Both the position numbers and the translations under genes were made by a program. The notes under the pieces are model-generated. The model did not search any database. It saw nothing but the letters and a program-made list of their open reading frames with translations, and was not told the origin of the DNA. A DNA stretch of 64,000 nucleotides from Perkinsus olseni (Eukaryota), in NCBI GenBank assembly GCA_013115125.1, contig JABANN010000052.1:1-64000 (forward strand), given 5' to 3'. This document shows, piece by piece, positions 2,655-41,895 of the stretch (positions are counted from its first letter, which is position 1; the number at the start of each line of letters is the position of its first letter).

Positions 2655-2820
2655 GTTACTACTACTGCCACCACTCACCAGCGGCGGCCCTACCAGTTGT
2701 TCTTACGTCAACGTATACTGCTACTACTACCACCACGCTTGGTGTTGAGTTCGTAAAGGGTATGAAGGTTTGTAGTGAGTCCAGCTTCGTACGAGGACTC
2801 TAGCAGGACATGATTCAATT

Positions 2821-5800: not shown

Positions 5801-5883
5801 CAGCCTCATCTCAGGCGGTACCAATGGGCTACACCGAGATCGACCTCGATACGTTGAATGATGAGCTCTACGATGACTTCTGA
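2821..5883 (+). CDS. EF-G family GTPase, ribosome-recycling factor EF-G2mt/GFM2-like, paralog 1
   Basis: [36 protein letters not shown]; domain [15 protein letters not shown]; domain V LEPIVQV...[12 protein letters not shown]. Confidence 0.88.
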
Positions 5884-5917: not shown

Positions 5918-9464
<3,547 letters not shown>

Positions 9465-22507: not shown

Positions 22508-23731
22508 TCACTGCGAGGACTGGAGTCTACCCAGCACTTCTGCGTCGACAAAGAGGTTTATGAATTCGCCTTGGTCGGGCTGCTGGCCGTTCATCCAGCC
22601 ACACTCGACATGAGCGTTCAACGCCGCACGATGGAAGTCCGTCCAACCACGAAGCTCATCTGGCGGAGAGCTATAGAATCCCAAGCCGCACATGGTGTGG
22701 TCGTCCAAACAGGAGCAACCCTCTTGGCGGACGGCATCTTGAAGAGTCCGGAAGTAGTGCTTAACAGCTACTACACCCTCGACTGAGGTCACAGGACCAT
22801 GACCGGGAACTACCTTCCACGATGAGTCGATACGCTGCTCCAGCCAAATCAAAGCATTCAGCCATTTCTGTGCAGAGCCACTGGTCATGATAGGCGTAAC
22901 GCCGACAAATAGGAGGTCACCAGTGAACACCACCTTAGCCTCCGGAACGATAACCATGCAGTCGAAGGAGCTGTGGGTAGGGCCGAAACACTTGAGCTCG
23001 ATGTGGTCATGGACAAAACCGGAATCCCCATTGAAAGTGGCGACATCGACAGGAAGATGCTCCGGCTTCTCGGGGTCGAATTGGGCAAAGTAATGGCCGA
23101 GTTCTAGCCCGACAACTAGACGCTGCAAGGGAAGAGGTAGGACGTTCAACACGCGCTGGAGATACTGGCCGAACCATTCATAGAGGTAGTACGCAGCAGC
23201 TTGCTGTTTAGCTTCCCCTTTAGCAGCACCGAGGATTCCCTCAACCACCGGGCGCATCTTCTCGTGCATAATGGCCGTGGTAAGGTTCTTGTAGGCCGTG
23301 ATACCGCCAATGTGATCGGGGTGAGGGTGAGTGAGGATGAAGGTGTCAGCTGGTCCGAGCTCGGAGGAGCTGTCCATAGCTCCTGCCAGGTTCCTGTCCA
23401 TTAGGGAATCGACTTGGTAGACATGACCGTAGGCCTTGATGCGACCAGCGTTGCTCCAGCCTTTACCGCCGTCTGGTTGGACGTAGGCTTCTACAGAGAC
23501 GTTAGGAGAGCTGAACAGCTTGACAATACCGCAACGGTAGGGGACCTCGGGATGGGCGAGTTGTTGTTGCACCGAGGTGAGCGGGTTGGAGCCGCAGTCT
23601 TGGACTAAATATGTTGACGGGACGGCATGGGCAGGGTCTCGGAGCTTATACCCGAGCCACATGGCGAAAACACCAACCCAAGCGGCCATCGCCAGAAAGG
23701 ACACCTTGAGGAAGCTGGTGCAGCTGGACAT
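22508..23731 (-). CDS. Metallo-beta-lactamase-fold hydrolase (cyclase-like), N-terminal membrane anchor, intronless
   Basis: 407-aa ORF: AYVQPDGG..WSNAG, THPHPDHIGG (HxHxDH), GPTHS, VVFTGDLLF, VVPGHGPV. Confidence 0.92.
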   Translation of the reverse strand: MSSCTSFLKVSFLAMAAWVGVFAMWLGYKLRDPAHAVPSTYLVQDCGSNPLTSVQQQLAHPEVPYRCGIVKLFSSPNVSVEAYVQPDGGKGWSNAGRIKAYGHVYQVDSLMDRNLAGAMDSSSELGPADTFILTHPHPDHIGGITAYKNLTTAIMHEKMRPVVEGILGAAKGEAKQQAAAYYLYEWFGQYLQRVLNVLPLPLQRLVVGLELGHYFAQFDPEKPEHLPVDVATFNGDSGFVHDHIELKCFGPTHSSFDCMVIVPEAKVVFTGDLLFVGVTPIMTSGSAQKWLNALIWLEQRIDSSWKVVPGHGPVTSVEGVVAVKHYFRTLQDAVRQEGCSCLDDHTMCGLGFYSSPPDELRGWTDFHRAALNAHVECGWMNGQQPDQGEFINLFVDAEVLGRLQSSQ

Positions 23732-24853
23732 CGGTAAACAAATAAGCCTAAACGACGAATGATAATAGAATCAGCATCTTAATTCTCCAGCTAACAATGG
23801 TGGCAACAGCAGCAGCAAAGGGCACCTGCACAAGCCGCTTTGTGACCCGCTACCGGTAGAGTGACGATAATGATTGCGTACGGCGTTCGATTAGGGTCAG
23901 AATCTCAACCAAGACAAGCGAGGGCCATAATGGTGTAGACAATCCGAGCTGGACACTTTCCAGCAATTCGCGCCAAAGCGATCTGCAGACACAAAGCGGA
24001 GGGCTGTAACCGCTGACGTCAGGACGAAGATCCGCATTGACGGCTCACGCTGTAGCAGCGAGGTGCTAGGCTGCCTGGCGATGCCAGGGGTTCGCCCTAT
24101 TGCAGTAACTGTTGTCGTGGGAAAGCAGACCCAGCTGGCAGCCTGAGCTTCTCCATCTCTTTGGATCGGAGTCCAGCTTCTCGCAGAAGGGCAATCTGTC
24201 GCTATGCCGCCTTTCCTGCAGGCTGCAAGCTTGTGACCGATCTGAGCATCGTAATGGCGAGTGAGGGTGAATGCTTATCCTCTCATGATCATCGAGACGT
24301 ATTAGCTCAATCGATGGTGCGCCATGGCCATCACTCGACGGGACAGCACGCACAAAACCACGTCCGAACTGTGGGACATTCCTACTACTGCAGTTAGTAC
24401 CGCACACTACACGCCATCGGAAGGGTTCCTTCACTGTTGCTGAATCCTCTTTCATGAATATGCTGACAACCGCTCCGCCTGCTCCCACGGGCTAAGCGGG
24501 CTGAGCTACGCACACGCGTGCTGCGGCTCCGAAATCATTCCCAGCCCATCGAGTCAGAAGGATTACTCGTTTGGTGGACCACCAATAATAGTATCCCATT
24601 CGTAGATGGTATCTCTCTCATTCCCTGAAGGCCAACTCCGTAGTCAACGCCGCCCCCAGTTCCCACTGGGACCACCCGGGGGGCACGACCTTGAGCCAAG
24701 GGACACCGCACTACCAGGCAAGTCGTACCGTGACTCACGGTGTGACACCGTCGGTGTCTCCCCAGTACACGCAACTCGGTCGAGTACTTTAAATGAGATA
24801 TCCTCTTAATGATATGAGAAAGAGTCTAAGTTAACAGTCTACGGGTTGAAATT

Positions 24854-26086
24854 CTAGCGAGAGCTGGAAGCCTCTGACCTCATCCTAAGGGCCTCGGCTT
24901 GAGCCAGGAGTCTGATCTTGGTATCAACAGTAATAACGGAGCTGTCTTCGACCTCGCAGTGGACATAGCCATTGATCCTCATGCGTTCAGGGGATACCCA
25001 TGTCCTGAATTCTTCAGGGAGCTTCTCGAAAAGCTCGGTACCACAGGATTCTCCTGAACTGACGCAACTGCATCCATCAGCGGCCATTTGGTCGCGGAAA
25101 AATTTCCAGTACCTCTCCAAGGCCTTCAGGCCTTTGAGAGACGTAACTGGACCATGCCCAGGGACTAGCTTCCAGCTATCGTCCACCTGTTGCTCGAGCC
25201 AGCTGAGAGCGTCCAGCCACTTCTCGACAGGGCCAGCCCACATAATAGGTGTGACGCCGATGAACAGGAGATCGCCGGTGAACACGACTTTCGCCTTAGG
25301 AACTAAGACCATACAATCATGCTTGCTATGGATAGGGCCGAAGCACTTGACCATTACGTCGTCGTTTACCCGATACACGTCGGTTTTGAAAGTTCTGGTC
25401 TCGAGTGGGAACTTTTCCGGCATAGTCGGGTCGAACTTGGCGAGGTAGTGACCGTTCTTGAGCAACCCAAGGAGCCCCTGGGTCTTGGCAGGAAGCCGTT
25501 TCACATAGGGAACCAAAAACTTTCCCAGCCACTCATAGGCATGATAAGCGGATATGAGCTTATTGAAGGACGCAGGCGCCACCTTGAAGGTAGCGTCCAC
25601 CACAGGGACCATCTCCTCCCGCATAACGGCAGTCGCATTGGCAGGGACCTCTAGGATGCCGCCAAAGTGGTCAATATCGGGATGGGTCAAAATGAAGGTA
25701 TCAACTTCTCCCATATCGGTCGAGGACTCAACCATGTTCCTAGTGAGAGTAATATCTTGCAGTGCATCCACCATGATCAGCTTCTGGCCGCTACGGATGA
25801 AGCCACCATTGCTCCAGCAGGTCCCGCCGTCAGGCTGCACGTAAGCGCGGACTTCCAAGTCGCTCGAGTCGAACAGCTCGACGGATCCGCATTTAAAAAG
25901 CACCTCAGGGTGAGCTAGTTCACCATGCACGTCCGAGAACTCGTTAACAGTGCAGTCCGTAGTCTTGTAGCTGGCGGGTATCGAGAGAATACCCTCTCCA
26001 AAGTAACCGACATATACCGCTGGGACCACCACCCAGGCACTCAGGACTACCGCGGATATCTTGCAGACCCTGCCAATAAAACTCAT
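24854..26086 (-). CDS. Metallo-beta-lactamase-fold hydrolase, tandem paralog, intronless
   Basis: 410-aa ORF: AYVQPDGGTCWSNGG, THPDIDHFGG, GPIHS, VVFTGDLLF, LVPGHGPV; colinear with the 22508-23731 gene. Confidence 0.92.
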   Translation of the reverse strand: MSFIGRVCKISAVVLSAWVVVPAVYVGYFGEGILSIPASYKTTDCTVNEFSDVHGELAHPEVLFKCGSVELFDSSDLEVRAYVQPDGGTCWSNGGFIRSGQKLIMVDALQDITLTRNMVESSTDMGEVDTFILTHPDIDHFGGILEVPANATAVMREEMVPVVDATFKVAPASFNKLISAYHAYEWLGKFLVPYVKRLPAKTQGLLGLLKNGHYLAKFDPTMPEKFPLETRTFKTDVYRVNDDVMVKCFGPIHSKHDCMVLVPKAKVVFTGDLLFIGVTPIMWAGPVEKWLDALSWLEQQVDDSWKLVPGHGPVTSLKGLKALERYWKFFRDQMAADGCSCVSSGESCGTELFEKLPEEFRTWVSPERMRINGYVHCEVEDSSVITVDTKIRLLAQAEALRMRSEASSSR

Positions 26087-26772
26087 GAAAAGAAAATTGA
26101 AAGCCCCTGAATGAACACGAACGTCACGACCGCAGCCTCAAGGCCCAGAGAATCCTCGCCCCGATAAAGGACGAGAATGAGCCCGCTGTTTCCTAAATTC
26201 CCTACGCACCTGCACTCAGAGCCATACGGGGGACGAGCGGGAAACTCTTGGCGGTTGAAATCTGTGCCATACCAAATCACAAACTTGAGAGGGCCAGAAA
26301 ACACTATGGCACGCCAGATGCTGACGCAAACGCAAATCTATGACGAAGAGAAAGGAGATCTCATATTCTCGTGACTACTCACTCTTATCGTCGCTATTGT
26401 TGTTGCACTCTGCTTCAATAGGAAGGACACGTACAGACAGACGCATGATGGAATACCGGTGGGGAATCGTGGCAACAACCGGGGACATCAATCACACAGA
26501 AGAACAGAATTCACAGAAGAAGAAATATCTTAGGTTGATCGTTGCAGCCTTTACCACAACTAACAGCGAGGAGGGAATCTTATAGCATCAGCAGCCACAA
26601 CGGCCGCCGCACAGCTGAGGAACATGAGGAACGAACTGCAGAATAAGTAAGACTAGATAATACCGGATAGCACTCCGGATGGAACGACCATTGGCAGGTG
26701 GAGGGGTTGGTCCGTACCGTGGACAGGAGTCCGATAACATGACAGACCAACGGGCTCTAACCTTTACAGTCC

Positions 26773-27921
26773 TCACTTACCAATGGTCGTCGCTCTGAAT
26801 AAAGATGACCTCCGACGAGACGCCTGGACATCAGCGTCGGGGTCTCTCTCACTCGACACAGAAGGGGTCACCACTGGCTCCCCGTCGCTAGAACAGAGGG
26901 CCTCGTCCTCAATGGAATCAGCACTCTCATCGTCAAGCTCCGGACCAGTAGCCCGCCATTGTTTGGTAGGCTCGATCGGAGGCGGAGCATAGGCAGCAAT
27001 GAGGTCGATCCGAGACTGTATGTTGGACAGCAGACGAACCGTCCACTCAGAATTGGGGCCGAGGGCCGCAAACAGGGGGAAGGCGACGTTCTTGTAGAAG
27101 GCTAGCTGACACAGGGCGTAACCAGGCGATGTGAGGCTTCGCGAGGGCACGCTCACGGGCGGAGTTACACCAACTTTCCGACTAAGATCGTGCTCCCTCC
27201 AGAACTCGAAAGAGGATCGGATACTCCACAATTGACTGAGCCTGGCCTCCTTAGTAGGGTTGGAGATATCAGCGGCGTGCAGCAGGACACTGAGTCGACT
27301 TGGCAAATCCTCATTGACGTAATTTTGCGCCTTCTCCACCATCCTACTATGATAGTCCATACATGTACAGAGAATCATCTCCTGTATCATACAGAGCCGT
27401 TTGGGGCCCAGGAGCCCGTCCAGCCCCGCCGCCGCGAGCATCTTCGCCGTCTCACGTGCGTGCATGCTCTCCAGCGGATGGGGGTCATCGGCATCACCCG
27501 TCCCCAGCGCCTTAGCGAAGGAATTGGACCAGCCAGGATGACCAACGTCGTGAGCAAAGGCTGCAAGTATTGCCGCCAACTCATCGAGCGGATCGAGCTG
27601 GTGTGAGCCCTCATAGACCTGGATCATCTGGTACAGGGTGATGGCCGTGTCAGCAGCGTGGATTCGGGTATGGTAACCATAGGTCTGCCTGTACCCCTCC
27701 TGGACCATCGCTAGGAACTTACTCACAGACCCAAGGACCCGCCTACAATGGAAGAGATCTTGCCATGGAAAGCACGCAAGCAACTGAGAGTTCACCTGCA
27801 CTGATGCTCGGTGCCCTGCAGCAGCCGGTTGGCCAGGAACAGTCCGACTACGCGGACAATCTCAGAACGTTCGGGTAATGCTTCGGTGAATCGGAAGATA
27901 TCCCAATATGGGTTAACCATG
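26773..27921 (-). CDS. Class I 3',5'-cyclic nucleotide phosphodiesterase (start uncertain)
   Basis: YHTRIHAAD, AHDVGHPGWSNSF, LESMHA, LLHAADISNPTK, CQLAF; upstream exon with WDIFRF. Confidence 0.88.
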
Positions 27922-28449: not shown

Positions 28450-30229
28450 ATGACTGATAACACCCCACAAACCTTCCGCGTGCGCGTCAGCGACCTCGGG
28501 TCGGGCGAGAAGACCGAGTTCGTCCGTTCAGCAGCGGACATCGTCTACGCCCAAACACTGGCTGATCGGACTAAACAGTTCTCGAGGGCCTCCGAGGAGT
28601 TCACTGGCGCGATGAAGCAGATCCTGGACCGACGGTTCGGAGAGGACTGGAACGTCTGTGTCGGGTTCAAGGTAATAAGCTGACCTAAAGATGTCATCTG
28701 ACTCTGCCGCATACTAGTTCACACTGGTAGTCCTCCCACACGTTTGTTTGATGGTTTTCGTCGCTACACAGTGGATCTGAATAGTTCGAGCGCGCTCCCT
28801 TACCGGCTGCAGCATGTGCAGCAACATAATGCTCACGGGTGGACGATGCTCATTCGTGTGTTTCACGGCGTGGTCTTGTACTTGAAAATTCATAACCCGA
28901 GCATGAGTCGTCGGAAATATGGTATGAAAATTTTCCCAAACGCAGCTAGCGGGCCGTACTAGGCGTGTAAAACCCGAGCTGGAATAAAGTAGAGGGTAAG
29001 TGTGTCGTCTCTCATTGGTTACTGCGCCCTTTCTTCACTGTCCCCATGGTCGAAGGACAGGCGAAGACGTTCTCATTGGCAGCCGGTCCCGAGCTGTGTC
29101 CACCACGATCGTTCAGGCCGGCTACGCTCTGAAATCCCGGAAGAAGGAGTCCGCGATTGTTTTGAGGAGTAACACCAAGGATGCATCGCAGCTTTTAGTG
29201 GTATGCTGGCGGAGTCCAGCATTCGAAATACTCGATCGCGAGGTGGGGCTCACTGGGGGCCTCGGCAACGGTAGCGCCTCGAGAACAGGTTGTCCGCCTA
29301 CAAGCGAGCGAGCAAGTGAGGGCAGAGGAGGGCACCGTCGAAGAAGTGAAGGGTGGTGAGTCGAAAAGGAAGGTCAAGGTTCTACAGCAACCTCAGGTCG
29401 TACCACTCCATCCGCGACGGAGGTATAAATGATAATCACCCTCTCAGGTCGATGATCCGACCTACAGTTCCGACACTACTGGTGTTATCGAGGAGGTCAC
29501 TAAGTTGGCACAGTCCGATGAGCTCTGGCCCAGTGACAAGCAAGATCTAGCGATAAAGATACGACAGCATTTGAGTGCCCGTTTCGGTGAGTGCATCAGC
29601 AGCCCTACTCTCTGCTTCATGGCTTATCTTAGGTCCTTGCTGGCACATCTTAACCAGTGATGGCGAGATAATGTGCCGTACGGTGGATAAGGGTGTCGAG
29701 TGCAGCCTTACACTCCAAGTTGGGAAGACCAAGTACGTCCACTTGCTGGAGGAAATTTTGGTATCTTCGAGTTCAGGGTTATCATCTTCCGTCACATCCA
29801 GCCGTCCACTGGCCTGCTGGCCTCCCTCTCTCCATCAACCCTAGCCGAGGCTATGCCGACGATTATGATGGTCTTGCTGGCACTGGTCTACATCTACCAT
29901 AGGGGCGTCTGTTCCAACCCTACTATTGCCGCTCTCCTCCCTGATGTAGTCCACGAGGTACCGGGTTCGACTCCCACAAGCAGCGTTTCTCTTCAGGCCG
30001 CCCTTGCCTTATGTCCTTCCGACGACGCTTGGTTCACTGGTGTCCTCTATCAAGTGGCAGGTAGGCCTTTGCAGTCCCAACCCGTCACTGCATCTCCGCT
30101 GCCTTCACCTCAGGCGCTGTTTTCGTCCTGAGCGTCGTGCGAAAAGTGATGAAGGTCGTGGGCCAGGCCACAGGCCGTCGTCGAGAACTCCACCATATGA
30201 GAGAACAGCAACAACAGCCGCAGGAGTGA
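28450..30229 (+). CDS. Protein with two dynein light chain type-1 (LC8)-like domains and two C-terminal hydrophobic helices
   Basis: Domain 1: MKQILDRRFGEDWNVCVGFK/AGYALK...LLVVCWRS. Domain 2: LAIKIRQHLSARF/GPCWHIL...LQVGKTK/VIIFRH. Then MPTIMMVLLALVYIY and WFTGVLYQVAGAVFVLSVV. Confidence 0.65.
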
Positions 30230-30410
30230 TGACTGATGATCGAGCCAACGTATTCAACCTTACCAACATACTTGACAGACCCATTTCTCACCGATACAGC
30301 TTTGCGTCGTCAATCATCTTTGCTCGGTTATCCTCCAATACCGGATAGCCCAGGATGGTCTTGACGGAAAGGGTATCACAATCCCTTCAGTTGATCGCTG
30401 CCATCGACCT

Positions 30411-32539
30411 ATGTACAGTAAAACTCCCCCACGCCGACGACGTAGCGGTCCCTATAGCAACACAGTGTCGCCCTATGGTCTACCACAGAGGCCACGGTAC
30501 TCTAACAGGTCTCTGGTCATCAACCCAGCACATGGAGGAGGGTCCTCGGGTAGTCCGGCAAGCCGCACTAAGCCGTCACTGGACGACGCCAGCCCACCGC
30601 GACAGGGCAGCCTGGCGAGGCCAATGTTGCTCCCGGGAGTGATGCCTCGCGACGGTGTGATCACCCCACCTGAGTTCGATGAAAATAAGGTAGCTCGACT
30701 GTCCCCCTCTTCGAATGAGCGTGGCATGCGCTCAGGCAGCGGATATGGACACCGTGGGACTCGGCCTTAATGAGGTTCTCGGTTATTACGCCCGGCAAAT
30801 GGCAAAGATAAGTGAGTTCAGGCAACTGGGGGACAGGGACTGTGAATACCGTGTCATCTCTAGGGACGGACATGCTGGCAGTAAGCGCCTCCCAGGCAGT
30901 GATCGAGGCCACCACCGAATCGGATGTGTCCCCGGCGACGACCGCCGACCCACCAACGCCATCGACAACCAGAGGAGATGTACGCGGTCTCCCCTTGCTG
31001 ATTCGGATGGCCCTTGGCAGACTCCCGGCCGCTACAGCAATTTGACGTGGACGCCCAAGCAAGGCAACTCGGGCAATGCCGCCGCGCCACGACCCCCTCC
31101 TCCACCGCCACCGACGCAGGGCGACCACGCTAATCGGAGCTGGTGGGTGTCAGGGTGCTTCTAAGGGCTCCTAGTTAAGGAGTCAGGGACCAAGGAGGCT
31201 GGAACAGCGGCAGGAAAAGTCATCGAAGCAGCAGTGGTGGGCCTGGCACTCCTAATGGACGGATATCAGCTCGTCTCCCATCGGCTAAGATGGCGTTCAC
31301 TCCTAACGAGAAACGTAGGGCACTGGGAAGCGTCGTTCTCTCGCTTCTGTGCTCCGCCCAGGCACCACCTTGCTGATGCGGAATGTGCCCAACGATCTCA
31401 ACCAAGAGGGGCTTGTCGACCTCATCTTGAAAATATGCAGGCAGCGCGGGAAAAGTACATCTGGGGAACTCATCATGCGAAAGGGGAGGATAAACCTTAG
31501 ATATCCGGGTCAACTTCTTCTATGCCCCGATGGACTCGGGAACTCGTCGGAATCTCGGCTACTGCTTCGTCAACTTACAGGAGTCGATCATGGCCAAGGA
31601 TTTCGAGGAAAGTACCCTTCAATGGCTGCTGCTGTTGTTGTGGCAGCTCTCTTCCCTCTCAGTCTTCACGGGGTTGGAGCTCCGAGGGGCCGGTCGAAAG
31701 CGAGTAGACTGCCAATGGGCAGTTCTACAAGGCTTCGCCGAGAATGTTCGCCACTATAAGAACTCCTCCACCGTTATGGACAAGGACAGCTCATATTGGT
31801 AGAGACTCTAGGCAGCTCCTCTAGCGTCTGTGGCAAGATCGAGAATGATACACAGTATTGGCTTCCAGTGGTAGTGATGAGTCGTAACGGCCGACTTGCA
31901 AAAATTGGTGTCACCAACACCCCTGTGGACTCGACACCATCAGGCGTTAATTCAATCAGTTTTCGATTTGCAGGACTGTTCTTGTCCATCATTGGATGTG
32001 GCAGGCCTCTCATATTCGGCCCCGACCAACGGCGACAGACCTTCCCACCGATCATGCCGGACACCTCTGACGCTACGCCCTCCTCCAAGCACTCCTACCC
32101 TGGCAACGGTACCCCGATGACCCCAGCTAGACCTAAAGGGTTGGTTCGAACCGATCATGCTGTTTCCAAAGAGTCACTCTCCGCTGACCTCAGGCGTATA
32201 CCGGCTCCACAGTCGATCCGCATTGTGGGACCGCCCGATGCTCTGAAGCCTGGGCCTATTCTGATGTCGGTAGCGGATGTCGTCGCCAGGGGTCGAACCT
32301 GCGACCTTTGCAGGTACCTTTGCAAATTCGGCGAGGTTCGAGAGCTCAACTCACAGAATGAAGTCCTCGTACGATAACCCAAGCACGGTGGGCTGAAGTG
32401 ACCATCCCTCCCTCAGATCGATGACGAGGGGCACAGCTACTCGGTGGCCGACTGCAGCTTCGGCGACTCCACCACAGCCGAGAGAATTCTTTCCCAACGG
32501 AAGCACGTCATCAATGGCTTCCGGGTTCGTATAGAGTGA
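30411..32539 (+). CDS. MEI2-like RNA-binding protein (RRM3/RRM_2 type plus degenerate C-terminal RRM)
   Basis: TTLLMRNVPNDLNQ, NFFYAPMDSGTRRNLGYCFVNL, CQWAVLQGFAENVRHYKNS; low-complexity N-terminus, start uncertain. Confidence 0.82.
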
Positions 32540-33094
32540 GCCTTGACGTCGGGCGATGCCGAGCCGCCACGCTGTGTTCGTTCAGACGATCGGTTCTGCC
32601 GGACACACGGAGAATGTTCTATTAGTTTGCCATGAACATGTCTTCGTATAATTGAGCTTCCCTCGCGTGACCGTTGCACCACAGACTTCGCGAGCTTCGC
32701 GTTGCAGTAGTAAAGAGAAGGAGCGTAGACAATGGCAAATCTGAGGAAGACGAATAATGTTGAAGGAGAGGGAACTGCTGTGATCGAGAACATCAACCGC
32801 CTAGCTCTCGAAATAGAAGAACTAGTTAGGGACATTAGTCCGTCGCGACGAAAGGGCGATGCTTGAATTTTCACTTTTGCGGAATTCCGCGAAAGATGAA
32901 GTTTGCAGGCACGAGTCACCCTAACATTATGATCGCTATAGAAATTCTATAATAGAATGGTCTCATAGAATGGTTTTGATCAGGGCTACGAGGCCTGTTC
33001 CCTTCGGTGAGCTCCCCTACGGATTCATGCAGGGCTCATTATACTGGAGAACTCAACACCCAGCGTTATCATGTTACACTCGCGTGGCGGTATG

Positions 33095-36000
33095 CTACTG
33101 TTGATTCACTACACAACGGACGAGCCGCTCCTGCTGCTCAGCAGAAGTCATCGCGGGCACCTGATAAGGGTATAAGGAACCGGTCAATGACGGTGCCCTC
33201 ACTTCGCAATTGTGAAGACGCATGACCTCCACTCGGCCAGTGGTGTCACCAGCCACCAGCACCGGAGAGTTTGGAGCGAAGCCCACTGACGTGGCACGCT
33301 GCCAACGATCTCTCCCGAGGTCATTGACTGGGTAGTGCACCTGTGACGACGGGAGGCGTCGCTGGAACGCGTCGGGGTGGTCTCACTATGATGGGGTCCA
33401 ATGGGCTCCTGTGGATATCCCACAGTTCAATTCTCCCATCATCCATTGCACCAGCGAAGGAAGTAGAGTTATGCGGACACCAGGCGATGTCGTTCACCTA
33501 CATGACCGGTGCTGTACAGTCGACCCATCACAGCCACCAGGAGTACCGAGTCGCAGAGATCTGTGGATTGGTAGCTCTGCAAAGGCGTGTTAGTTGCGAC
33601 CCCGATTCGGTCCAGCGCGGTTGAGTCAGCTCGTTTGGGCATGTAGCTGCCGCTACCTGCAGAAGCAGCAGAAGGCGGCGCCGCAGGTGTGGGATCCTCA
33701 CCACGACGAGCTTCTATTGGTATGGGCTTGGTCGACCACAGTTTGATGGTCCAGTCAGCACTGCACGTAAGGAAAGCCGGCGCCCAGAAGGGGTTGCATC
33801 GGACCTGGCCGTCAACCCTCGATCCCTTAGCCAAGAGCGACGCAATCCCACCTTGTAGACAGCGGCGGCATGACCGTAGTAGGTCTCAAGGTACTGCTCG
33901 TTGTAGCTGGTAGAGCATCGGTGGACCAGCCCGTCTTCGGTACCGACCAGGTACATGGACGGGTCCTTCTTGAGGAAGCTCACACAGAAGCCACAGCTTT
34001 GCCTGAGGGCCTCTTTCGTGCAAGGGGTGGTATCGCAGTGAGCTCCCTCACCTGAATGCCTGACTATCCTGACTCGTAGCCCCTCTATCTTGCGGCCCGG
34101 TGTTGAGGACGTTGGTAGCGAGATCTGGGTTAGGTGATCTCTTCAGCGACATCAGCACCGCACGGTCTAGTCCCTGACAGGACCGCCTTCGTCCGTAGTG
34201 GAGCCCCCAGTGGGCTCAATGGACCCACCTTCCTCATGTCCCACTGCAGTACCTTACCATCAGCGCCTATCGATACAAGAGACTCCCTCGGGAACTTGTC
34301 AGGGCCTCTGTCCACCTGCCACAGAGGCAGTGCTGGCCACCGGCGAAGGCGGAGCGCTACCCATTGTAGGTCCCACACTGCGTCGGTATGTCTGCTAGAT
34401 AGAGTAGAGGCCGCGCTCCCGCCCTGCGACTGCTGACCTCCACTAGCCCGCTGTTGAGCGCCGCCAGTGGGCCCGGACTGGGCCGTTGAGTCCAGTATCT
34501 GAGCGGGAGAAGCTCCTCCTCCGCATTCCCGAGAACAGCCGACAGGTGATGCGCTTCCTTGACGGAGGTCCCAGATAGCGACGCCGCCGTTTTGCAGTCC
34601 GACCGCTATCAAGTTGGGATAGATATCGCTGAAGGCCAGCGAGGAGACCTAGCATGAGTAAAAGCAGAATAGTTTCACCCAGTGCAATAACCAGTCCTGC
34701 ATCTATCACCCCAGCGTTAGTTTCCAGGGCCCTCTCAGGATGGGAGGGGTTCTTGAGACTCCAAAACAACACAAGGCCGCTACCGGAGGCTCGCCACGCT
34801 GCATCGGAGTCTCCTGAGGGATGCCATACATTGGTAGGGATCAGTGGTTACCCCCGCCACGAACCGTAGGATGCGCAGAGAAGGTCCTGGTTGACCTGAT
34901 GCCACTTGAGATTGGTGGTGGATAGCCCACCCGTCAACTGGGGCGCTTCAAAACAGAAGAGATGCTGAGGACGATTAGCAGACATGAAGCCTCTCTTGGA
35001 CAGGGAAGGTGCCATCGGTAGTTTCCCAGCAAACAATGCTTAGCTGGGTTATTATCACCTTCATGCTCGATTTATCCTCGTCATCAGGTTCGGCGTCTTC
35101 CTTATCAGTTTCCTCAGGGATAGTGTCGGTCTTCTCCTCCGAACGAAGGGACGTTGTGCTCGATCGGAGAGAGGCATCTCTCGAGCGGCGCGCGTCGGTG
35201 CTGAAACATGTCCGAGTGTCGGACTTCTCCTAGCTCAAAGCCCTCAGACCAGATGAACACTCGATTTCCTTACCCGCTGGAGACACTAGGCGACCTCTGA
35301 CTGGTCGAGGCCTCAGCAGCGTTCTGAGAGGCCGCACTGTCGGCGACAAACTTCTGTTCTCTCTCAGTTAGTTCAGCTAGAGTCGGGTAGTTACGGTACC
35401 TACCACTGCCATCAATGCCTTCAGGGTAGCCGGCACAGATTCCTACAGCAAGTGGGCGCTGTGGTGCTCATTCTGGCTCAGAGTCCTCTCCATCACCCTG
35501 GCAGCCTCCGACAGCTCATCGGGTACGGACAGGTTGCTCTCCATGACCCATCCCAGAGTTCGGGAGTTTGACTGCAAGACGAACGATGGCGAGAAGCGCT
35601 GCTTTGAAGTGTAGCTCACTTCGGTCTTCGCCTTCAGCTCGACTCGTGCTGCCGCTCCTGACATTGGACCAGCTCTCTTAATTTTACGATTCATACGGGC
35701 CATCGAGTCACTTTTGTCACTCATCGGAGCGTGTATGTCGAGCTTCTTGGAGTTGCCAGTTCCCACCCCTTTGGACGCCTCTTTTGATAGACCAGATCGA
35801 TTACCCTGACCAGAGGGGCGAGCTGCATCATGTCATTCGCGGTAAGGCGGTGTTCATACTCCCTGCCCTCTCAAACCCTCCTTCTTGGACTGAGCAGTGA
35901 CAGCTCGAGAAATACCCCCGCTAGTATGAGAAAGGAGGGCCTCCGAGGAAGTATCAAACAGGCATCCGGACTTCGCTAGGCATTCCGAGGCCTGAGAATA

Positions 36001-37298
36001 TCGGGCGAGCGGTTAGCATTGCGTCTCGATGGGAACCCTACTGTTTCGTCCAAGTTTCGCTGACATTCGATCTGGATCTGCAAGTCGGGAGGGACAACTT
36101 CTTCTTCGAAGCTGTCGTGTATGTCCCAGACGGAGGCGTTGACTCCCGTCGACAAAGTGGCTGAGAAAAATACTGGAACCGAGAATCGAACTCGGGACCT
36201 ACTGCGTGTTAGGCAGTCGTCATAACCAACTAGACCATTCCAGCGATGTTAAGCCAGAAAGTTGAACGGGTGACATCCAAGTAATCAAAAACATCTCATC
36301 ATGATAATACTAGCCCGGCTACTGGGAAGAGGCATCAACTATCCGCTCACCTGGAGGGTCCGTGAGGGTCTCCTTCATCTTCTGAGCGTAGTTGAGAGTT
36401 TGTGTGTGTTGCGCTCGGAATTGATCTGGAGCGTTCTGTTTCCGGTTCAGTAGAGCCTCGTAGTCCTCGTTCTCGGTAACAATCTGGGTACAACACTTGC
36501 GTGAGGCCAGGGAATGCCCAGAACTCCCCAACAGCGCCCGCCAGGCCTCACCTTCTCGTACGCCTCCATTTCAGCGCTGGCCGCATTGCTAGGTATGTCG
36601 ACCAGGACTGTGGTCGGCGTCTCCGACAGGTTTACCTCTACCATTCGGTCCTCTCCGAAGTTACCCTGACAATCGAAGGAGGGTAGTGACTCACTACTAG
36701 TGAGGGATGAAGGAATTCACTGGGCCACCACCCTCTCCCAGCTAGGAGAAGGAGAGCAGACTCCTACCAGTGGCTTGAGAACAGCGTGCAGGCCTGAGGG
36801 TGTATTCTGCTCAGGGGGTTGCTTGAAAGTGTCCCTGATATGAACCATCGCATCGTAAGTTGATGGTCAGAGCCGAGCTGCCCTACGACAAGCGGCCTTT
36901 CCGAAGTTCCTCGACCTTCCTAAGTTCTTCCTTCAACTCCTCGACTGCTCTTCGAGGCATCGTCTTTAACACAGCTCCCTGCTGCTGTTGCTGCACTGGC
37001 GGAATCAGGGACTTCGGCGTTACATTGCGACTAGGACGGTACCCATATGGAGCCAGTCGAGCCCTAGTCAGCCGCCTACCCATCCAAAATAACGTAGGTG
37101 TTCGTGGGCTTTGGTGAGGCACCCGTGGTGGTTGCACCGATCTGACTGCTGTTCAGCATGTTTCCATGTGGATGCAACTGCAATGGGAATCTATTTCCTG
37201 GTTCTATCACCAGTTCATGGGCTTACCTGCTTGCTCCCACTGGTATTTAGGCGTTTAGAGTCGCCGGGCCGTGATTGAGCTGTTGCCGTCGCCTGCAT
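33095..37298 (-). CDS. WDR78: Axonemal dynein intermediate chain, WD40 repeats (WDR78/DNAI4-like)
   Basis: LSETPT, VMERTLSQN, LFWSLKNPSHPER, HTDAVWDLQW, YLVGTEDGLVHRCSTSYNEQYLETYYGH, FLTCSADWTIKLW. Confidence 0.85.
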
Positions 37299-37581
37299 GA
37301 GGAGGCATACGAAAAGGACCTCTAAAATAGAGAGCTATGCTGGACAGCAAGCCCGACAACAACGAGCTTCAATCGAGGCAATGATGATCCCTGCAAGATT
37401 CAGAAGTGGCGAGGTTTCCCTCCGGCGAAGCCTTAAGAATTAACAACCCAATGCGATCTACGCAGGGGAAAGCCGCAACAATGCGCGGAGTAACCCTGAA
37501 ACCAAGGCCGGAAGCTCGTCCCTCGGAGGGCCCTCATGCCCTCAGTCACCCAAGTGGTCATCAAGCAGGGCGAAGATCTCC

Positions 37582-40012
37582 TCATCCCGGGCTTATTCCG
37601 GCTAACTTATCGAATTGCTCCTCCGCGATCTCCATTCTACTTTCGCTCTCGCTAATACACCGTACCAAACTACTCGAGTCCTGTACGACCGGCTTCAAAG
37701 ACGCCTCCAGGACCATTACCCGACCTAAGGCTCTACGGCAAGCCTCTGACAGCAGCTGGTACGTAGCAATCTCCAACGCGGCCTTGCTCGATGCCTCGTC
37801 CCTCAGAGCCTTCCTGACGCATTTAAGTAACCCCTTCGGAATGGGAGATTTGCCAGACAACAGAAATGTAGAAGTTAGTAGCTTTCGACACCGGCGGGAC
37901 ATCCCCTCTGTTTGGTTCCACGGGGCAACCTGAATCTCAGCCCCCAGTGGTGCCTGGGCTGGTAAGGGTAAGCCTTGAACTGCCGCCAGCGTCGCTGACC
38001 CCCGCCATTCGAACGACAGGGGGTCGCCTAGCTCTATATCAGAGCTCGCAACAAATCTCATCAGCCCTTCGCTCTCGGTTAGTCGAAGACTCCCTCGTTC
38101 TGAGTCGCTACTGCGAACGAGTTGGGAACCCGGCAGCAGAACCCACCTGAATTTAGCGACGACATGCTGAGCAGACAGGCGTTGAGGCGAAGCGTACATC
38201 CCACGGCCGAGACGTATGCTATCGGTGAGAACGGCAGCTCTGAGCCACGACTCTCCATCAACAGATGCTGCTGCCAATTGGGCATCCAGAACCACCTGCA
38301 AGACATCCAAGGTAGTATGCTGTGCAAGCGAGTTCCATGCGCTGTGGATAGGAGAGCGACCCGAATCATAGCCTCAACTGAGCCGTGATCAGCTGCTGAG
38401 ACGAAACGTTAGCTGAATAACAGCAATTACATCGCTAGTATCGACACCCATCGTAGTGACTATGTTAAGCAGTATTTCTCACGCCCTGTTATGACCTAGG
38501 CTGAGTATCAGCAACATTAACGCTGATGGGAAGCCATATGAAACTCAAGGGACCTACCGCCCCATTCGCTTGTACTACCTCTTTATATATAGTAGGGCTA
38601 ACCGCTTCCAATGCCTCCACTAAACTACCATTCACGTCCCCTATTATCGATCTAGCACCACGCAGCGGTGCGTGCTCCTTCGCCTCGGCTAGATAAGCTC
38701 CCCAAAGCTCCTCTGGACTCGACTGCTGCAGCTCCTCTAGACTATCCACGATCTGTTGCAGAGAGCCACGCAGTACAGCCTCCTTGGGATACTCGAATAG
38801 TGATATGCCGGCTGGCAATGCTGTAAGGGCCTCCAACGGTCCACCAGACTCTGCTAATCCCACCAAAGTCGAAAGTATCCCTTCGTCTACTAGCGCAGCG
38901 TAAAGTCGACTCTGCGCCGTATCCGATACGAGAGGTTCTTGATGGCGTATAGGATCCAGATTAATCGGGTGTTGGGACCATTGCCTGAACTTGACCCATG
39001 ACCCCGAGCGGTCACTGGAGATGACCGTGCTACCTGAGTTTCCGAATGTACTCGCCGTCAAGTCTTTCCCAATCGACGGCTGTCCACCAGGCTCTGAGAT
39101 ACCCCTCTAAGCTGGCCGCATGGCTCTCGATGTACCTACAAAATCCTGCAGAAAAGTTGGCTGGCACCACTCGACTACTACGCATGCTCCCAGAGATCAA
39201 TGTTGAAAATGGCGTAGATGTGGTCACCGTGGATACCGTCATAGTCGGGAGAGGCTATAACAGATAGTCCTTCCGGGAGGCTAAGGAGCCAAACCCAACC
39301 GTATCCATCGAGGGATGAGGCAGCCTCCATGAGTTCCTGATAAATTGTAGCTAGAGGTGTCAGAATACCTGACTTACTTACCTCGAAAAGCTCCTTCATA
39401 CCACCGAACGCGTCAATAATATCTTGGGCCAGCACTGAGCCCTCGAAGGAGGCTGGCTCCTTAAACTCGTCAGACGTCCCGGTAGCTCGGAAGGAGCGGA
39501 AATAGATTTCGTGGTAGATGTAGCTGAAGCGAAGTGAGTTAGATGAGGCCTCAAGTGGGCTATTAGATTACCTATTCCCATAATAAAGCAGCTTGTCACA
39601 TAAGGGCGTAGGCACCTCCTCAGACAGACTGTTATCATATTCGCAGAAGTACAGGAGAGCATCAAAGCCCATGTGACGGGCGTGCCTGAGGACACCAGCG
39701 TATCTTAGGTCGACCCTGGCAGCAAAGGCATACGTTGGGAGGTCTGGTATCAAAGAGAGCTGTCTCAGTGCTGTGTTGAATCTGGCGGTATCCCGGCCGC
39801 ATACAGAGCGGTAGTGGTAACTGAAGAAGGTCCGTAAGAAGATTTACAGAACATCCTGCGTATGGGTACCTCAAGGACTTGGGGTGGACTAGAGGCTCGT
39901 AATTGGTGTAGGTTGAGAAGGGCACGTCAAATAGCGGCACTTGTCGGGCACCGAAGGCAATCGATGCAAAGAGGATGAGGACGGACAGGCCTCGAATGAA
40001 GTGAAGTAACAT
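37582..40012 (-). CDS. Signal peptide + Fe/Mn-SOD-like domain + degenerate SET/Rubisco-LSMT-like domain
   Basis: Spliced: MLLHFIRGLSVLILFASIAFG; YEPLVHPKSLSYHY; YHEIYF; IIDAFGG; GYGWVWL; IDLWEHAY; WWTAVDW; then SET-like ALTALPAGISLFEYP, LP...PSAW, VLLPGSQLVRSS, FVASSDIELGDPLSFEW. Confidence 0.72.
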
Positions 40013-40340
40013 TGGAAAAACTATGAGGCCACCGTCACGAAAACGAAAATGACAAACAAAACTCGCTCCGTAGCGGAGCGATGCGTCGGTTCTTCGCAAC
40101 GGCGCGTTATCTGAATTCCTCTATATCCATTCAGGAACTGCGATTTATGCGGTGAGCGTCTCCTGCCATTCAAGGCACAGCCTGATGGTATCCTAGGTTC
40201 ATGGAGGCTGAATTTAAGTTAACAAGATATGATAAGATTCGTCGAAATCGGACTGCTGGCATTCCGACCTCCCCAGATTCGAGTCCGCTCACCGGAAAGG
40301 TTCCAGTTTGATAGTTCGTGGATAGGCTTTCCCTCCTGTA

Positions 40341-41895
40341 ATGGCAACCTGCATCGTCTTTGGCGCCGGGGCCTTCGGTACTGCGATGTCTGCTGCTCTG
40401 GCACGGTCGTCGGCGATTGGGAGAGTTTACCTCTACGGCCGTGACCGAAAAGTGATAGATGGTATCAATCGGTATGGCATCAATGAGAGAGTAATACCAC
40501 AAGTACTAGGGAGGTTACTCACGCTAAAACCCGTGTCGAGAATCGCCCGTGACATTGGGTAGGCGACTGACGGGGTCGTCCGAGGCCGAGAGTTTCCCGT
40601 CTCTGTTTCCATAACCCTATCATCCGTAGCTGCCCTGGATGGTGCATTGGATGATTCCTCTTGTCTTGTAAGCATTACCGTTCTCAACGTGCTTAGCTCT
40701 AACGCGGGTGACTTTATTCGTCGCCACGGGGCCGCGTGTGAAGGGTTATCTCGCGTAGGTAGGTACCCACCGTTTGAGTACCGACAAGATTTTAGCGACA
40801 ACCTCTTTACACGATCTGCCGCAAACTGCTAGCTCGTACTTCCATGCCATACCAGTGCAGCAATCTATGGCGTTTTTACGGCATCTGGAGGACGCCCACT
40901 TTCCTCTCGGTGGATGCCCCTACGTTAACTGCTCCAAAGGTGTCATGCTGTACGAAGGCAATAAGCTCATGACTGTGAGCCAAATGTTCGGCCATTGCCT
41001 AGGTTTGAAGGGGCACTACATGGCTCTGTCGGGGCCTTCCTTCGCCCAGGGCCTGTTGGAAGCTGCTCCATGCGTGATGTCTCTCGCGGGTGGTAACGGC
41101 GAAGTTGCCGAGCTGTTGCGTGCCAGTCAAGGGATTTTCATAGAGGATACGCCGAAGCTGACGGTAGAGGCAGTGGAGTGGGCTGGGGCTATGAAGAACG
41201 TCTGTGCGCTCGCTTACGGCTGGGTGGAAGCCAGCCTGAACTGTAATACAGCAGCGGCAGTTGTCACTGTCATGTGGAGGGAGCTCTTCGGCCTCCTTGG
41301 AAGGGAGGATGAGAGTAGTAAGGGTGCGGCAAGTTCCTCGATTATTTTATAGGGAACCGCTAGGATTCCTGAGGTATCCGAGTCCCTTAGATTCCAGCTT
41401 GGTGTAGCTCGCGTGGCCTCATTCTCCGGTCGGAATTGGAGTGTAGCGGTATAACTTGAGAAGTTTTTAAATCGTCCTCGGCAGTCGCAATTGACGAGGT
41501 TTTACTTATCTCTAGGTAGCCGATATTCATTTTTTGAGAGTTCTGGTGGCCTCGGGGATCTACTGGTAACCTGTAGCGGTGGGAAGAGCCGTAATGTTGG
41601 GTATGGCCGAGACGTCGCGGAAGCGCAACAGAGGGGTAGGCTTCTCTGCTCATGCATTGGTCGAATTAATTGTTCGCTGCACGCTACATTTTCAGAAGGG
41701 CCCGTGGCAACGGATCTCACTGCCCGACCGACAGTGGAAGGTTTGCATACCGTGAAGGCATTGCTGTCTTTCTATGGGCCTGATAGAATACCGCGTACAA
41801 GCCGTATAATAGAGGGCCTCCAAGGCCTTAGGGACCCTGCGGCAGCAGTCGCTAATGCTTTACGAGCTTACGTTTGGGGGCTGTCGATTTGCTAG
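40341..41895 (+). CDS. NAD(P)H-dependent glycerol-3-phosphate dehydrogenase (GpsA-like)
   Basis: VFGAGAFGTAMS, NCSKG, LSGPSFA, VEWAGAMKNVCALAYG, GLGDLLVTCSGGKSRN, VEGLHTVK. Confidence 0.9.

Follow-up and report, generated by a model that had tools for sequence, protein, structure and literature searches.

A gene on the minus strand of a contig (JABANN010000052.1 of assembly GCA_013115125.1) of Perkinsus olseni, an alveolate parasite of shellfish, joins, in one frame, a signal-like N-terminal segment, an iron/manganese superoxide dismutase (Fe/Mn-SOD) fold and a long C-terminal region. It lies at 37582..40012 of the stretch analysed, positions 1 to 64,000 of the contig (64,000 nt), which is referred to throughout as the window. 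The gene is real and is expressed as one spliced mRNA; the joining of its three parts, proposed earlier from the DNA letters alone (the sequence-only reading), is borne out by a spliced RNA contig and by Pfam. The interpretation favoured here, with a probability of roughly 0.6, is that the product is one secreted protein of 603 residues, in which a metal-holding, rewired SOD fold is followed by a degenerate SET-type tail. Fe/Mn-SODs rarely occur as anything but stand-alone enzymes, and full-text literature searches turned up no paper on this gene or on a fusion of SOD with SET.

One spliced transcript spans both halves of the gene

The coding sequence (CDS) runs from the ATG at 40012-40010 to the TGA at 37584-37582, exactly the limits given by the sequence-only reading. 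It comprises nine exons separated by eight introns, all of them GT..AG, and once spliced is 1812 nt long, encoding 603 amino acids and a stop codon with no internal stops. Four public runs were mapped to 36400-40400 (X1, X4, X23 and X24), of which X4 is recorded as RNA-seq and X1 is taken as RNA by guess. X4 yields a single contig of 1908 nt over 37495-40021, which covers the whole CDS and has all eight introns removed, and X1 gives the identical eight junctions at a depth of 316-402; the GT..AG intron ends were assigned after small shifts of the cuts at contig junctions. Of the 24 listed public runs, 20 (from 11 studies) contain half or more of the words sampled from 37300-40100. The raw-read RNA runs X23 and X24 (2026), which bear the same species label as the runs containing these words, gave no reads on the 4-kb stretch in a 4-5% sample of each; the organism is rare in them or their species label loose, and they are no test of the transcript.

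The earlier exon structure was correct in placing a linker intron of about 49 nt, GT-AG and joined in frame, between the two halves, and in noting that the exon after it lacks a methionine. It assumed about six introns rather than eight, missing those at 39686-39733 and 38147-38197, and did not give the 283-nt extent of that at 38296-38578. The peptides it quoted (WWTAVDWERLDGEYIRKL, ALPAG..LFEYP, LLPGSQLVRSS and ASSDIELGDPLSFEW) are all found in RNA-supported exons.

Contigs of both X1 and X4 join 38984 to 39034 across the linker intron, and the depth at this junction equals that of the flanking exons (316.2 in X1, 15.6 in X4). In the bin across the intron the depth is 200.6 in X1, equal to 316.2 x 85/134, and 9.93 in X4, equal to 15.6 x 85/134. 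As this is the exon depth multiplied by the exonic fraction of the bin, nothing is left for a retained form among the contigs. The in-frame TAG at 39032-39030 would indeed end the protein if the linker intron were retained, as had been proposed for a stand-alone SOD-like form; no contig retaining it is found among those of X1 and X4, contigs being prone to drop rare variants.

That in-frame TAG is one of the points in favour of a locus with two products, in which a SOD-like protein stands alone (through intron retention, or polyadenylation near 39030), the downstream part encodes an independent protein and the continuous open reading frame (ORF) is an artefact of annotation or assembly. Trans-splicing is used by Perkinsus, and in the database the P. 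marinus model breaks off within the SOD domain, both of which would fit such an arrangement. It is nevertheless scarcely credible: the 49-nt intron is removed at exon depth in two runs with no depth left for a retained form, exon 7, directly after it, has no methionine in the spliced CDS, the end of the P. marinus model is a modelling error at intron 5 (see below), and the public P. olseni model has the same eight junctions. The 3' ends of the transcript lie at 37495 (X4) and 37463 (X1), about 90-120 nt past the stop codon, and the depth of X1 beyond them falls from 402 to 27 and then, across the downstream same-strand neighbour, to 2-7, about 100-fold thinner. The case named earlier as contrary to a fusion, a transcript ending after 39030 followed by a separate downstream gene, does not hold given these contig ends and this fall in depth.

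Intron 7, at 283 nt, is about six times as long as the other seven (45-51 nt). A trace of it remains in an unspliced X1 unitig at 38268-38595, whose depth of 15.1 compares with 316-398 for the exons (about 4-5%); since the unitig enters either exon by less than 31 nt, it is not counted as bridging. Reading into the intron, the frame meets no stop for 27 codons from the donor, and the 26 codons ahead of the acceptor are likewise open. An Rfam scan of 36400-40400 returned a single sub-threshold match, to Xist_exon4 (20.3 bits against a threshold of 100), which is taken as chance, and none in intron 7.

Orthologues and public gene models

When the long exon after the linker intron is used as a query, it finds the P. 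olseni protein P0001, at 96% identity. Over residues 1-583 it aligns with the window protein without gaps (556/583 identical, 95%) and has the same eight junctions. P0001 is 1524 amino acids long and is named 'WD repeat domain 78 / dynein axonemal intermediate chain 4'; it tracks the window gene to residue 576, and residues 577-1524 correspond to the downstream dynein gene (WD40; DNAI4/WDR78-like). It is a wrong merger of the SOD-like gene with this neighbour.

The model from P. marinus ATCC 50983, P0004, errs in the other direction. It is 244 amino acids long and ends in ..DLWEHA exactly at intron 5, a truncation best regarded as a modelling error because that intron opens with in-frame stops (GTAGTAG). 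The model also starts too early, the methionine that is likely the true one (MFLYSLLL..) lying about 28 residues further downstream. Both halves are conserved between two Perkinsus species, with 82% identity to the window protein in the SOD part (P0004) and 72-73% in the tail (P0003) for the P. marinus-like species. The SOD part in P0005 and the tail in P0003 are each encoded on a single contig, in both cases 10,083 nt long, which suggests that the two are probably on the same contig and hence that the halves are neighbours in the P. marinus-like species as well.

In each of the two sequenced species the public model of this gene is therefore wrong, being joined to an axonemal dynein gene in P. 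olseni and cut short at an intron in P. marinus. As a consequence, proteomic work on antioxidant defence in Perkinsus, and comparative studies, will miss or mislabel it.

The SOD-like half keeps its metal ligands and has lost its second shell

Residues ~25-247 are, by profiles, alignments and a structural model, a genuine Fe/Mn-SOD fold, old and Mn-type-like, and the homology is firm. The Pfam family Sod_Fe_C (PF02777) matches the P. olseni orthologue at 62.1 bits against a cut-off of 20.9 (5.6e-17, profile positions 4-99 of 102) and window exon 5 alone at 29.8 bits, and phmmer against the PDB gives matches to MnSODs down to 4.9e-15. The N-terminal domain has helices that still align with their counterparts in SodA and SodB of E. 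coli and that appear as long helices in the structural model. That model, built for P0004 with AlphaFold, has a predicted local distance difference test score (pLDDT) of 70-95 over residues 53-244; its input alignment was made of SODs, and P0004 is without the last ~35 residues of the fold. With this model Foldseek returned 251 PDB matches at E<=0.001, of which the 50 listed are all SODs and the best listed is 1gv3_A. The match of P0004 to 2cw2, the structure of the P. marinus enzyme PmSOD1, is weaker (1.3e-6) than those to fungal and bacterial MnSODs (2.3e-10), which argues against a recent copying of PmSOD1 as the origin of the window gene. A predicted complex of two copies of the SOD-like domain (score 0.01, mark 0.32) bears neither way on dimerisation. 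In the JGI metagenomes, 208 pattern matches to the SOD part were obtained and none was confirmed by tblastn.

In a MAFFT alignment of E. coli sodB and sodA, the spliced window protein and P0004, all four metal ligands are kept: His26, His73, Asp156 and His160 of E. coli FeSOD correspond to H50, H119, D209 and H213, and the same holds in P. marinus. The Trp and Glu of DLWEH are likewise kept. For comparison of other positions, a bacterial set was assembled with a degenerate DVWEHAYY pattern; 80 loci were fetched of 118 stretches, giving 74 clean ORFs, and the exclusion of a 335-aa ORF left 73. In E. coli FeSOD numbering, His26 and His73 are His in 73/73 of these and in Perkinsus. The residues around the ligands are a different matter. 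His30 (His in 73/73) is replaced by Val54 (Ile in P. marinus), His31 (70/73) by Cys (C55), Tyr34 (Tyr in 72/73) by Asp (D58), Asn72 (Asn in 71/73) by Tyr, and the Ser of FGSGW (73/73) by Tyr. At the Fe-type Gln site (69) the bacterial SODs have G in 53 cases, Q in 19 and S in 1, where Perkinsus has Ser115; at the Mn-type site (146) they have Q in 51, A in 16, H in 3 and G in 3, where Perkinsus has Tyr194. An active-site Gln thus occupies one of the two sites in 70 of the 73 bacterial proteins and neither in Perkinsus. All of the second-shell replacements are identical in the two Perkinsus species, except for Val versus Ile at His30.

With its four ligands kept, the SOD-like domain should still bind metal. 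Tyr34 and the Gln form a hydrogen-bond relay to the metal-bound solvent that is needed for fast turnover, and its loss lowers turnover by orders of magnitude. Since the relay residues are replaced, proton-coupled dismutation at normal rates has probably been lost, to judge from the enzymology of SODs. The sequence-only reading spoke of two probable pseudo-enzymes; for dismutation by this half the word is plausible, the second shell being lost, yet the site is not dead by ligand loss, as H50, H119, D209 and H213 remain.

A different reading of the same site makes it that of an active Mn- or Fe-SOD, secreted or membrane-anchored, which acts against host superoxide while the tail merely positions it. 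The four ligands and the Trp and Glu of DLWEH would be expected of such an enzyme, the closest match in both sequence and structure is a membrane-bound cyanobacterial MnSOD, and RNA runs cover the gene well. The replacement of His30, His31, Tyr34, Asn72 and Gln, each present in at least 70 of the 73 bacterial SODs, and the drop in turnover that accompanies loss of the Tyr34-Gln relay make this reading unlikely. In its favour, too, the portion of the P. marinus study drawn on here describes a dependence of Perkinsus on SODs against host reactive oxygen (PMC2868825).

The C-terminal half is probably a degenerate SET-type module

The C-terminal half (residues 249-603) is probably of SET/LSMT ancestry, as is suggested by two comparisons of different kinds. 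The 30 named ESM Atlas clusters closest to the tail include 28 annotated with SET, Rubis-subs-bind or Ctm1, at scores of 0.91-0.92, a lead and not proof; of shuffled proteins, 4-10% also score 0.9. The second comparison used hhalign. A search with PF09273 for an LSMT-type template found none in E. coli and 14 control genomes, and a generic bacterial SET template was used, consisting of 31 bacterial SET domains collected as Pfam SET matches in five genomes and then in 301 genomes of one phylum. Against this the alignment of the tail scores 24.6 (P 0.007), with an hhalign probability of 5.5%. Block-of-8 column shuffles of the query have a mean score of 12.5 (standard deviation 2.6), with 1 of 274 reaching 24.6, and the reversed query scores 15.0.

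In the hhalign register GDPLSFEW is placed on GEELxxDY and SS(N/D)S on NHS. The Asn of motif III falls on a gap, its His on N430 (D430 in the window) and the Tyr of motif IV on W463, which agrees with the earlier statement that the NH and Tyr motifs are absent at the SET-like positions. If the SET ancestry is true, the absence of the Asn-His and Tyr motifs implies that the tail is not a working methyltransferase. The alignment contains no convincing N-SET strands. The predicted order of secondary structure in the tail is helices, strands, helices, in a low-confidence model. Conservation between the two Perkinsus species is highest over the final ~110 residues, which points to a constrained function, most simply protein binding.

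A number of results weigh against this assignment, and against the favoured interpretation as a whole. For the tail, no Pfam family, SET (PF00856) and Rubis-subs-bind (PF09273) included, matches the window exons at E<=1 or the proteins P0001, P0002 and P0003 at E<=10. A phmmer search of 1.84 billion representatives with the 263-aa stop-to-stop frame at 37585-38373 (exons 8-9) gave no matches, an absence that is weakly supported because ~44 residues of the query derive from intron sequence and the search missed even the P. olseni copy (it is probably grouped under a different representative). A profile search of the PDB with the tail gave four matches at E 0.67-1.1, none of them SET; they are a mitoribosomal L17 extension and aminoglycoside acetyltransferases, and are taken as chance. 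AlphaFold models of the tail, built from five near-identical rows, have an unusable pLDDT of 33.3. The SET-type neighbours in the ESM Atlas share 136-157 features, against 170 typical of true family members, and once unnamed clusters are admitted, the top three neighbours are bacterial clusters of that kind, at 0.92-0.93. The hhalign probability is low and was obtained with a template that is generic bacterial SET, not LSMT-type. In the SOD half, Sod_Fe_N (PF00081) has no match at E<=10 on the window exons or the orthologues, and the Asp, Trp, Glu and His columns of the bacterial set are invariant by construction, the set having been picked by the exact DVWEHAYY pattern.

Foldseek with the tail model gives nothing at E<=0.001 (best E 0.38, no SET), a result that is meaningless given a model of this pLDDT. 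In a 5.8-billion-protein index the tail finds Perkinsus fragments only, and in the JGI metagenomes none of 205 pattern matches was confirmed by tblastn. In these collections the tail region is so far Perkinsus-only. The non-significant PDB match (E 0.67) pairs tail residues 261-350 (P0001 numbering) with the C-terminal extension of mitoribosomal L17 (7pkt_G) and includes the short identical runs sdtaq..ly.a and alpag.s.f.

The fusion could thus be real while its C-terminal 355 residues are a new, Perkinsus-specific domain without SET ancestry, the signals from motifs, profiles and embeddings being due to chance or convergence. This would account for the lack of a Pfam, phmmer or PDB sequence match, for the low hhalign probability and the one block shuffle that equalled the real score, for the unnamed clusters that head the unfiltered Atlas at 0.93 and the ease with which shuffled proteins reach 0.9, and for the absence of the N-SET strands and of all catalytic motifs. 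Such an origin is considered rather doubtful, as two methods that share no machinery, language-model neighbours and profile-profile alignment, agree on a SET-type family, and the hhalign register is the one that had been proposed by eye. LSMT-type enzymes have the order iSET, C-SET, C-lobe, which the helices-strands-helices order of the tail fits, if with low confidence. The likeness to SET and Rubisco-LSMT asserted by the sequence-only reading accordingly finds backing in the Atlas neighbours and the hhalign P value and none in Pfam, the PDB or the AlphaFold model, and is best described as weakly supported.

The N-terminal segment suggests a secretory route

Residues 1-21 (MLLHFIRGLSVLILFASIAFG) are predicted to be a secretory signal peptide or signal anchor. 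Residues 5-22 form the sole strongly hydrophobic segment of the protein (15-residue windows, Kyte-Doolittle 2.2). Arg7 precedes the core LSVLILFASIAF, which consists of 13 uncharged residues, and Ala19 (-3) and Gly21 (-1) stand before A22 at the likely cleavage site, preceded by A-F-G. In P. marinus, P0004 is just as hydrophobic at this position, with a different sequence. The sequence-only reading had allowed a secretory or a plastid destination. Of these the secretory route is likely, in view of the hydrophobic segment, and plastid targeting is unlikely: about four residues separate the predicted cleavage site from the start of the SOD alignment, too few to accommodate the transit peptide of a bipartite plastid leader.

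An organellar destination would be required if the protein had a purely structural place in a larger organellar complex, as a subunit without catalytic activity, its N-terminus acting as an import signal or membrane anchor. The degraded second shell of the SOD active site would suit a structural role, and the best PDB profile match of the tail, non-significant at E 0.67, is to a mitoribosomal protein, the L17 extension. The uncharged 13-residue core with small residues at -3 and -1 is, however, of the secretory type and unlike an amphipathic presequence, there is no space for a plastid transit peptide, and all four ligands are kept, whereas mitoribosomal SOD-like proteins are usually without them. 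A precedent exists in the plastid RNA polymerase of plants, which uses SOD folds (PAP4/PAP9) and the LSMT-like SET protein PAP7 as subunits; these are in different clusters and make no contact, according to the part of the structural report bearing on them (PMC11561172). Overall, this reading is very unlikely.

A proposed role for the protein

On the favoured interpretation, the first 21 residues would route the protein into the secretory pathway, as a cleavable signal peptide or as an anchor. The SOD-like domain would hold Fe or Mn through His50, His119, Asp209 and His213, its SOD activity having been lost or changed with the replacement of the second shell; slow superoxide removal, other chemistry and a structural role for the metal site are all possible. 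The tail would most probably be a very diverged Rubisco-LSMT-type SET module with a helical C-terminal lobe. Without the motifs for binding S-adenosylmethionine and transferring a methyl group, it may serve as a protein-binding or anchoring module and not as an enzyme.

A bolder and distinctly improbable extension is that of a secreted metalloprotein in which an intact metal site and a rewired relay (Asp for Tyr34, Tyr for Gln, Val and Cys for His30 and His31) support a new redox or metal-handling activity at the host-parasite interface, delivered or tethered there by a pseudo-methyltransferase module that recognises a partner protein of the parasite or the host. Were this true, the protein would be a lineage-specific invention from two enzyme folds never otherwise combined.

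Features of the locus and neighbouring genes

The features of the gene are collected in Table 1.

Table 1. The SOD-like gene and its parts, in window coordinates
Feature	Position	Strand	Basis
Whole CDS	37582..40012	-	RNA-contig junctions, open ORF, P0001 alignment
Short 5' untranslated region (UTR)	40013..40027	-	Contig starts at 40021 (X4) and 40027 (X1); sequencing adapter beyond 40027 in X1
Exon 1	39870..40012	-	RNA contigs
Codons 1-21, predicted signal peptide or signal anchor	39950..40012	-	Hydropathy
Intron 1, 49 nt, GT..AG	39821..39869	-	RNA contigs
Exon 2: ligand His50 (39814-39816) and replaced second-shell V54, C55, D58	39734..39820	-	RNA contigs, alignment
Intron 2, 48 nt	39686..39733	-	RNA contigs; same junction in P. 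olseni model
Exon 3: ~16-residue insertion between the two long SOD N-domain helices	39572..39685	-	RNA contigs, alignment
Intron 3, 48 nt	39524..39571	-	RNA contigs
Exon 4: ligand His119 (39511-39513)	39382..39523	-	RNA contigs, alignment
Intron 4, 45 nt	39337..39381	-	RNA contigs
Exon 5, SOD C-domain core: Y194 at Mn-type Gln position; Asp209 (39196-39198) and His213 (39184-39186) in DLWEH	39182..39336	-	Pfam Sod_Fe_C, alignments
Intron 5, 46 nt; starts GTAGTAG, an in-frame stop	39136..39181	-	RNA contigs
Exon 6: end of SOD fold, ..WWTAVDWERLDGEYIRKL	39034..39135	-	RNA contigs, alignments
Linker intron 6, 49 nt, phase 2; boundary of SOD half and C-terminal half	38985..39033	-	X1 and X4 contigs
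Exon 7: residues 248-383, helical, possible iSET-like insert	38579..38984	-	RNA contigs; secondary structure from low-confidence model
Intron 7, 283 nt	38296..38578	-	RNA contigs
Exon 8	38198..38295	-	RNA contigs
Intron 8, 51 nt	38147..38197	-	RNA contigs
Exon 9: residues 416-603 and stop	37582..38146	-	RNA contigs
Exon 9 beta-rich stretch: putative degenerate SET motif III/IV-like LLPGSQLVRSSDS (419-431) and DIELGDPLSFEW (452-463); conserved helical C-terminal part after		-	hhalign register; conservation against P0002 and P0003
3' UTR	37463..37581	-	Contig ends, depth fall

The window has a G+C content of ~54%, and its other frames encode ordinary eukaryotic proteins, including EF-G-like GTPases, a kinesin, metallo-beta-lactamase-fold proteins, a cyclic-nucleotide phosphodiesterase, glycerol-3-phosphate dehydrogenase, SRP54 and topoisomerase 3-beta. 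Downstream on the minus strand is the axonemal dynein intermediate chain gene (30000-37300), covered in X1 at a depth of 2-7; its own 49-nt intron, 37031-37079, has a junction depth of 3.4. On the other side, a divergent intergenic region of ~320 nt (40013-40330) separates the SOD-like gene from a plus-strand gene for glycerol-3-phosphate dehydrogenase, which has a GxGxxG start near 40336 and Pfam NAD_Gly3P_dh_N/C matches at 40759-41892; this region is probably a shared bidirectional promoter. Two tandem arrangements are found elsewhere. Translational-GTPase genes (GTP_EFTU and EFG_C) stand head to tail on the plus strand at 2779-5858 and 6074-9086, and two metallo-beta-lactamase-fold genes on the minus strand (22511-23770 and 24857-26137) adjoin a 3',5'-cyclic-nucleotide phosphodiesterase gene (26776-27861).

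Comparison with known systems

SODs are central to the survival of Perkinsus in the face of the oxidative burst of oyster and clam haemocytes. The FeSODs of P. marinus, the mitochondrial PmSOD1 (PDB 2cw2) and PmSOD2, come from the same group of organisms and share the fold of the window protein; unlike it, they are canonical active enzymes without a C-terminal extension. PmSOD2 has an N-terminal leader and is localised to single-membrane compartments (PMC2868825). In the portion of the P. marinus expressed sequence tag (EST) paper drawn on here, three EST clusters with both SOD domains are described, ESTs are matched to PmSOD1 and PmSOD2, and a divergent or fused SOD goes unmentioned (PMC2868825). 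The gene described here would be a third member of the family, with a predicted export signal, a complete set of ligands, a rewired shell and a large extra module. If its product is secreted, it becomes a candidate host-interface factor. A role as a SOD-like subunit of the Perkinsus respiratory supercomplex was considered and dropped, as the preprint on the P. marinus supercomplex, in the portion drawn on, mentions SOD just in general discussion and as an assay reagent.

The closest match of the SOD fold is the membrane-bound MnSOD of cyanobacteria (1gv3, the catalytic portion), which gives both the best sequence match (4.9e-15) and the best structural match (Foldseek 3.9e-10, TM 0.58/0.66). 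The two share a Mn-type fold, the same four ligand positions and a hydrophobic segment at the N-terminus, which in the native cyanobacterial protein is an anchor (the entry title reads 'membrane-bound'). They differ in that the Perkinsus protein, at ~20% identity, has lost His30, His31, Tyr34, Asn72 and Gln, has an insertion of ~16 residues in the N-domain and carries 355 extra residues.

These extra residues find their nearest counterpart in the Rubisco-LSMT-type SET methyltransferases (plant LSMT, SETD6/SETD3, yeast Rkm/set11, Ctm1 and PAP7/pTAC14), which combine a SET domain with a Rubis-subs-bind lobe. The likeness consists in the 28 of 30 ESM Atlas neighbours, the hhalign register on motifs III and IV and the low-confidence order of helices, strands and helices. 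By contrast, the tail has no hidden Markov model match, lacks the Asn-His of motif III, has Trp463 in place of the Tyr and shows no recognisable N-SET strands, and it is placed behind a SOD fold and a signal peptide.

SOD folds with a possibly structural role, as may be the case here, are also seen in PAP4/FSD3 and PAP9/FSD2 of the plastid RNA polymerase and in the mitoribosomal proteins mS42 and mS43. The window protein differs from such recruited subunits in that its ligand set is complete. In the spinach plastid RNA polymerase, as described in the part of the report on these subunits, the LSMT-like SET protein PAP7 and the FeSOD pair PAP4/PAP9 belong to different clusters (PMC11561172). A 'Rosetta stone' idea, in which the Perkinsus fusion would mirror a contact of PAP7 with PAP4/PAP9, was rejected for this reason. 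The domain architecture is new, built from known folds and so far restricted to Perkinsus, and the gene offers a test case for the amount of drift that a SOD scaffold tolerates without giving up its metal, as well as for the uses to which degraded SET modules are put.

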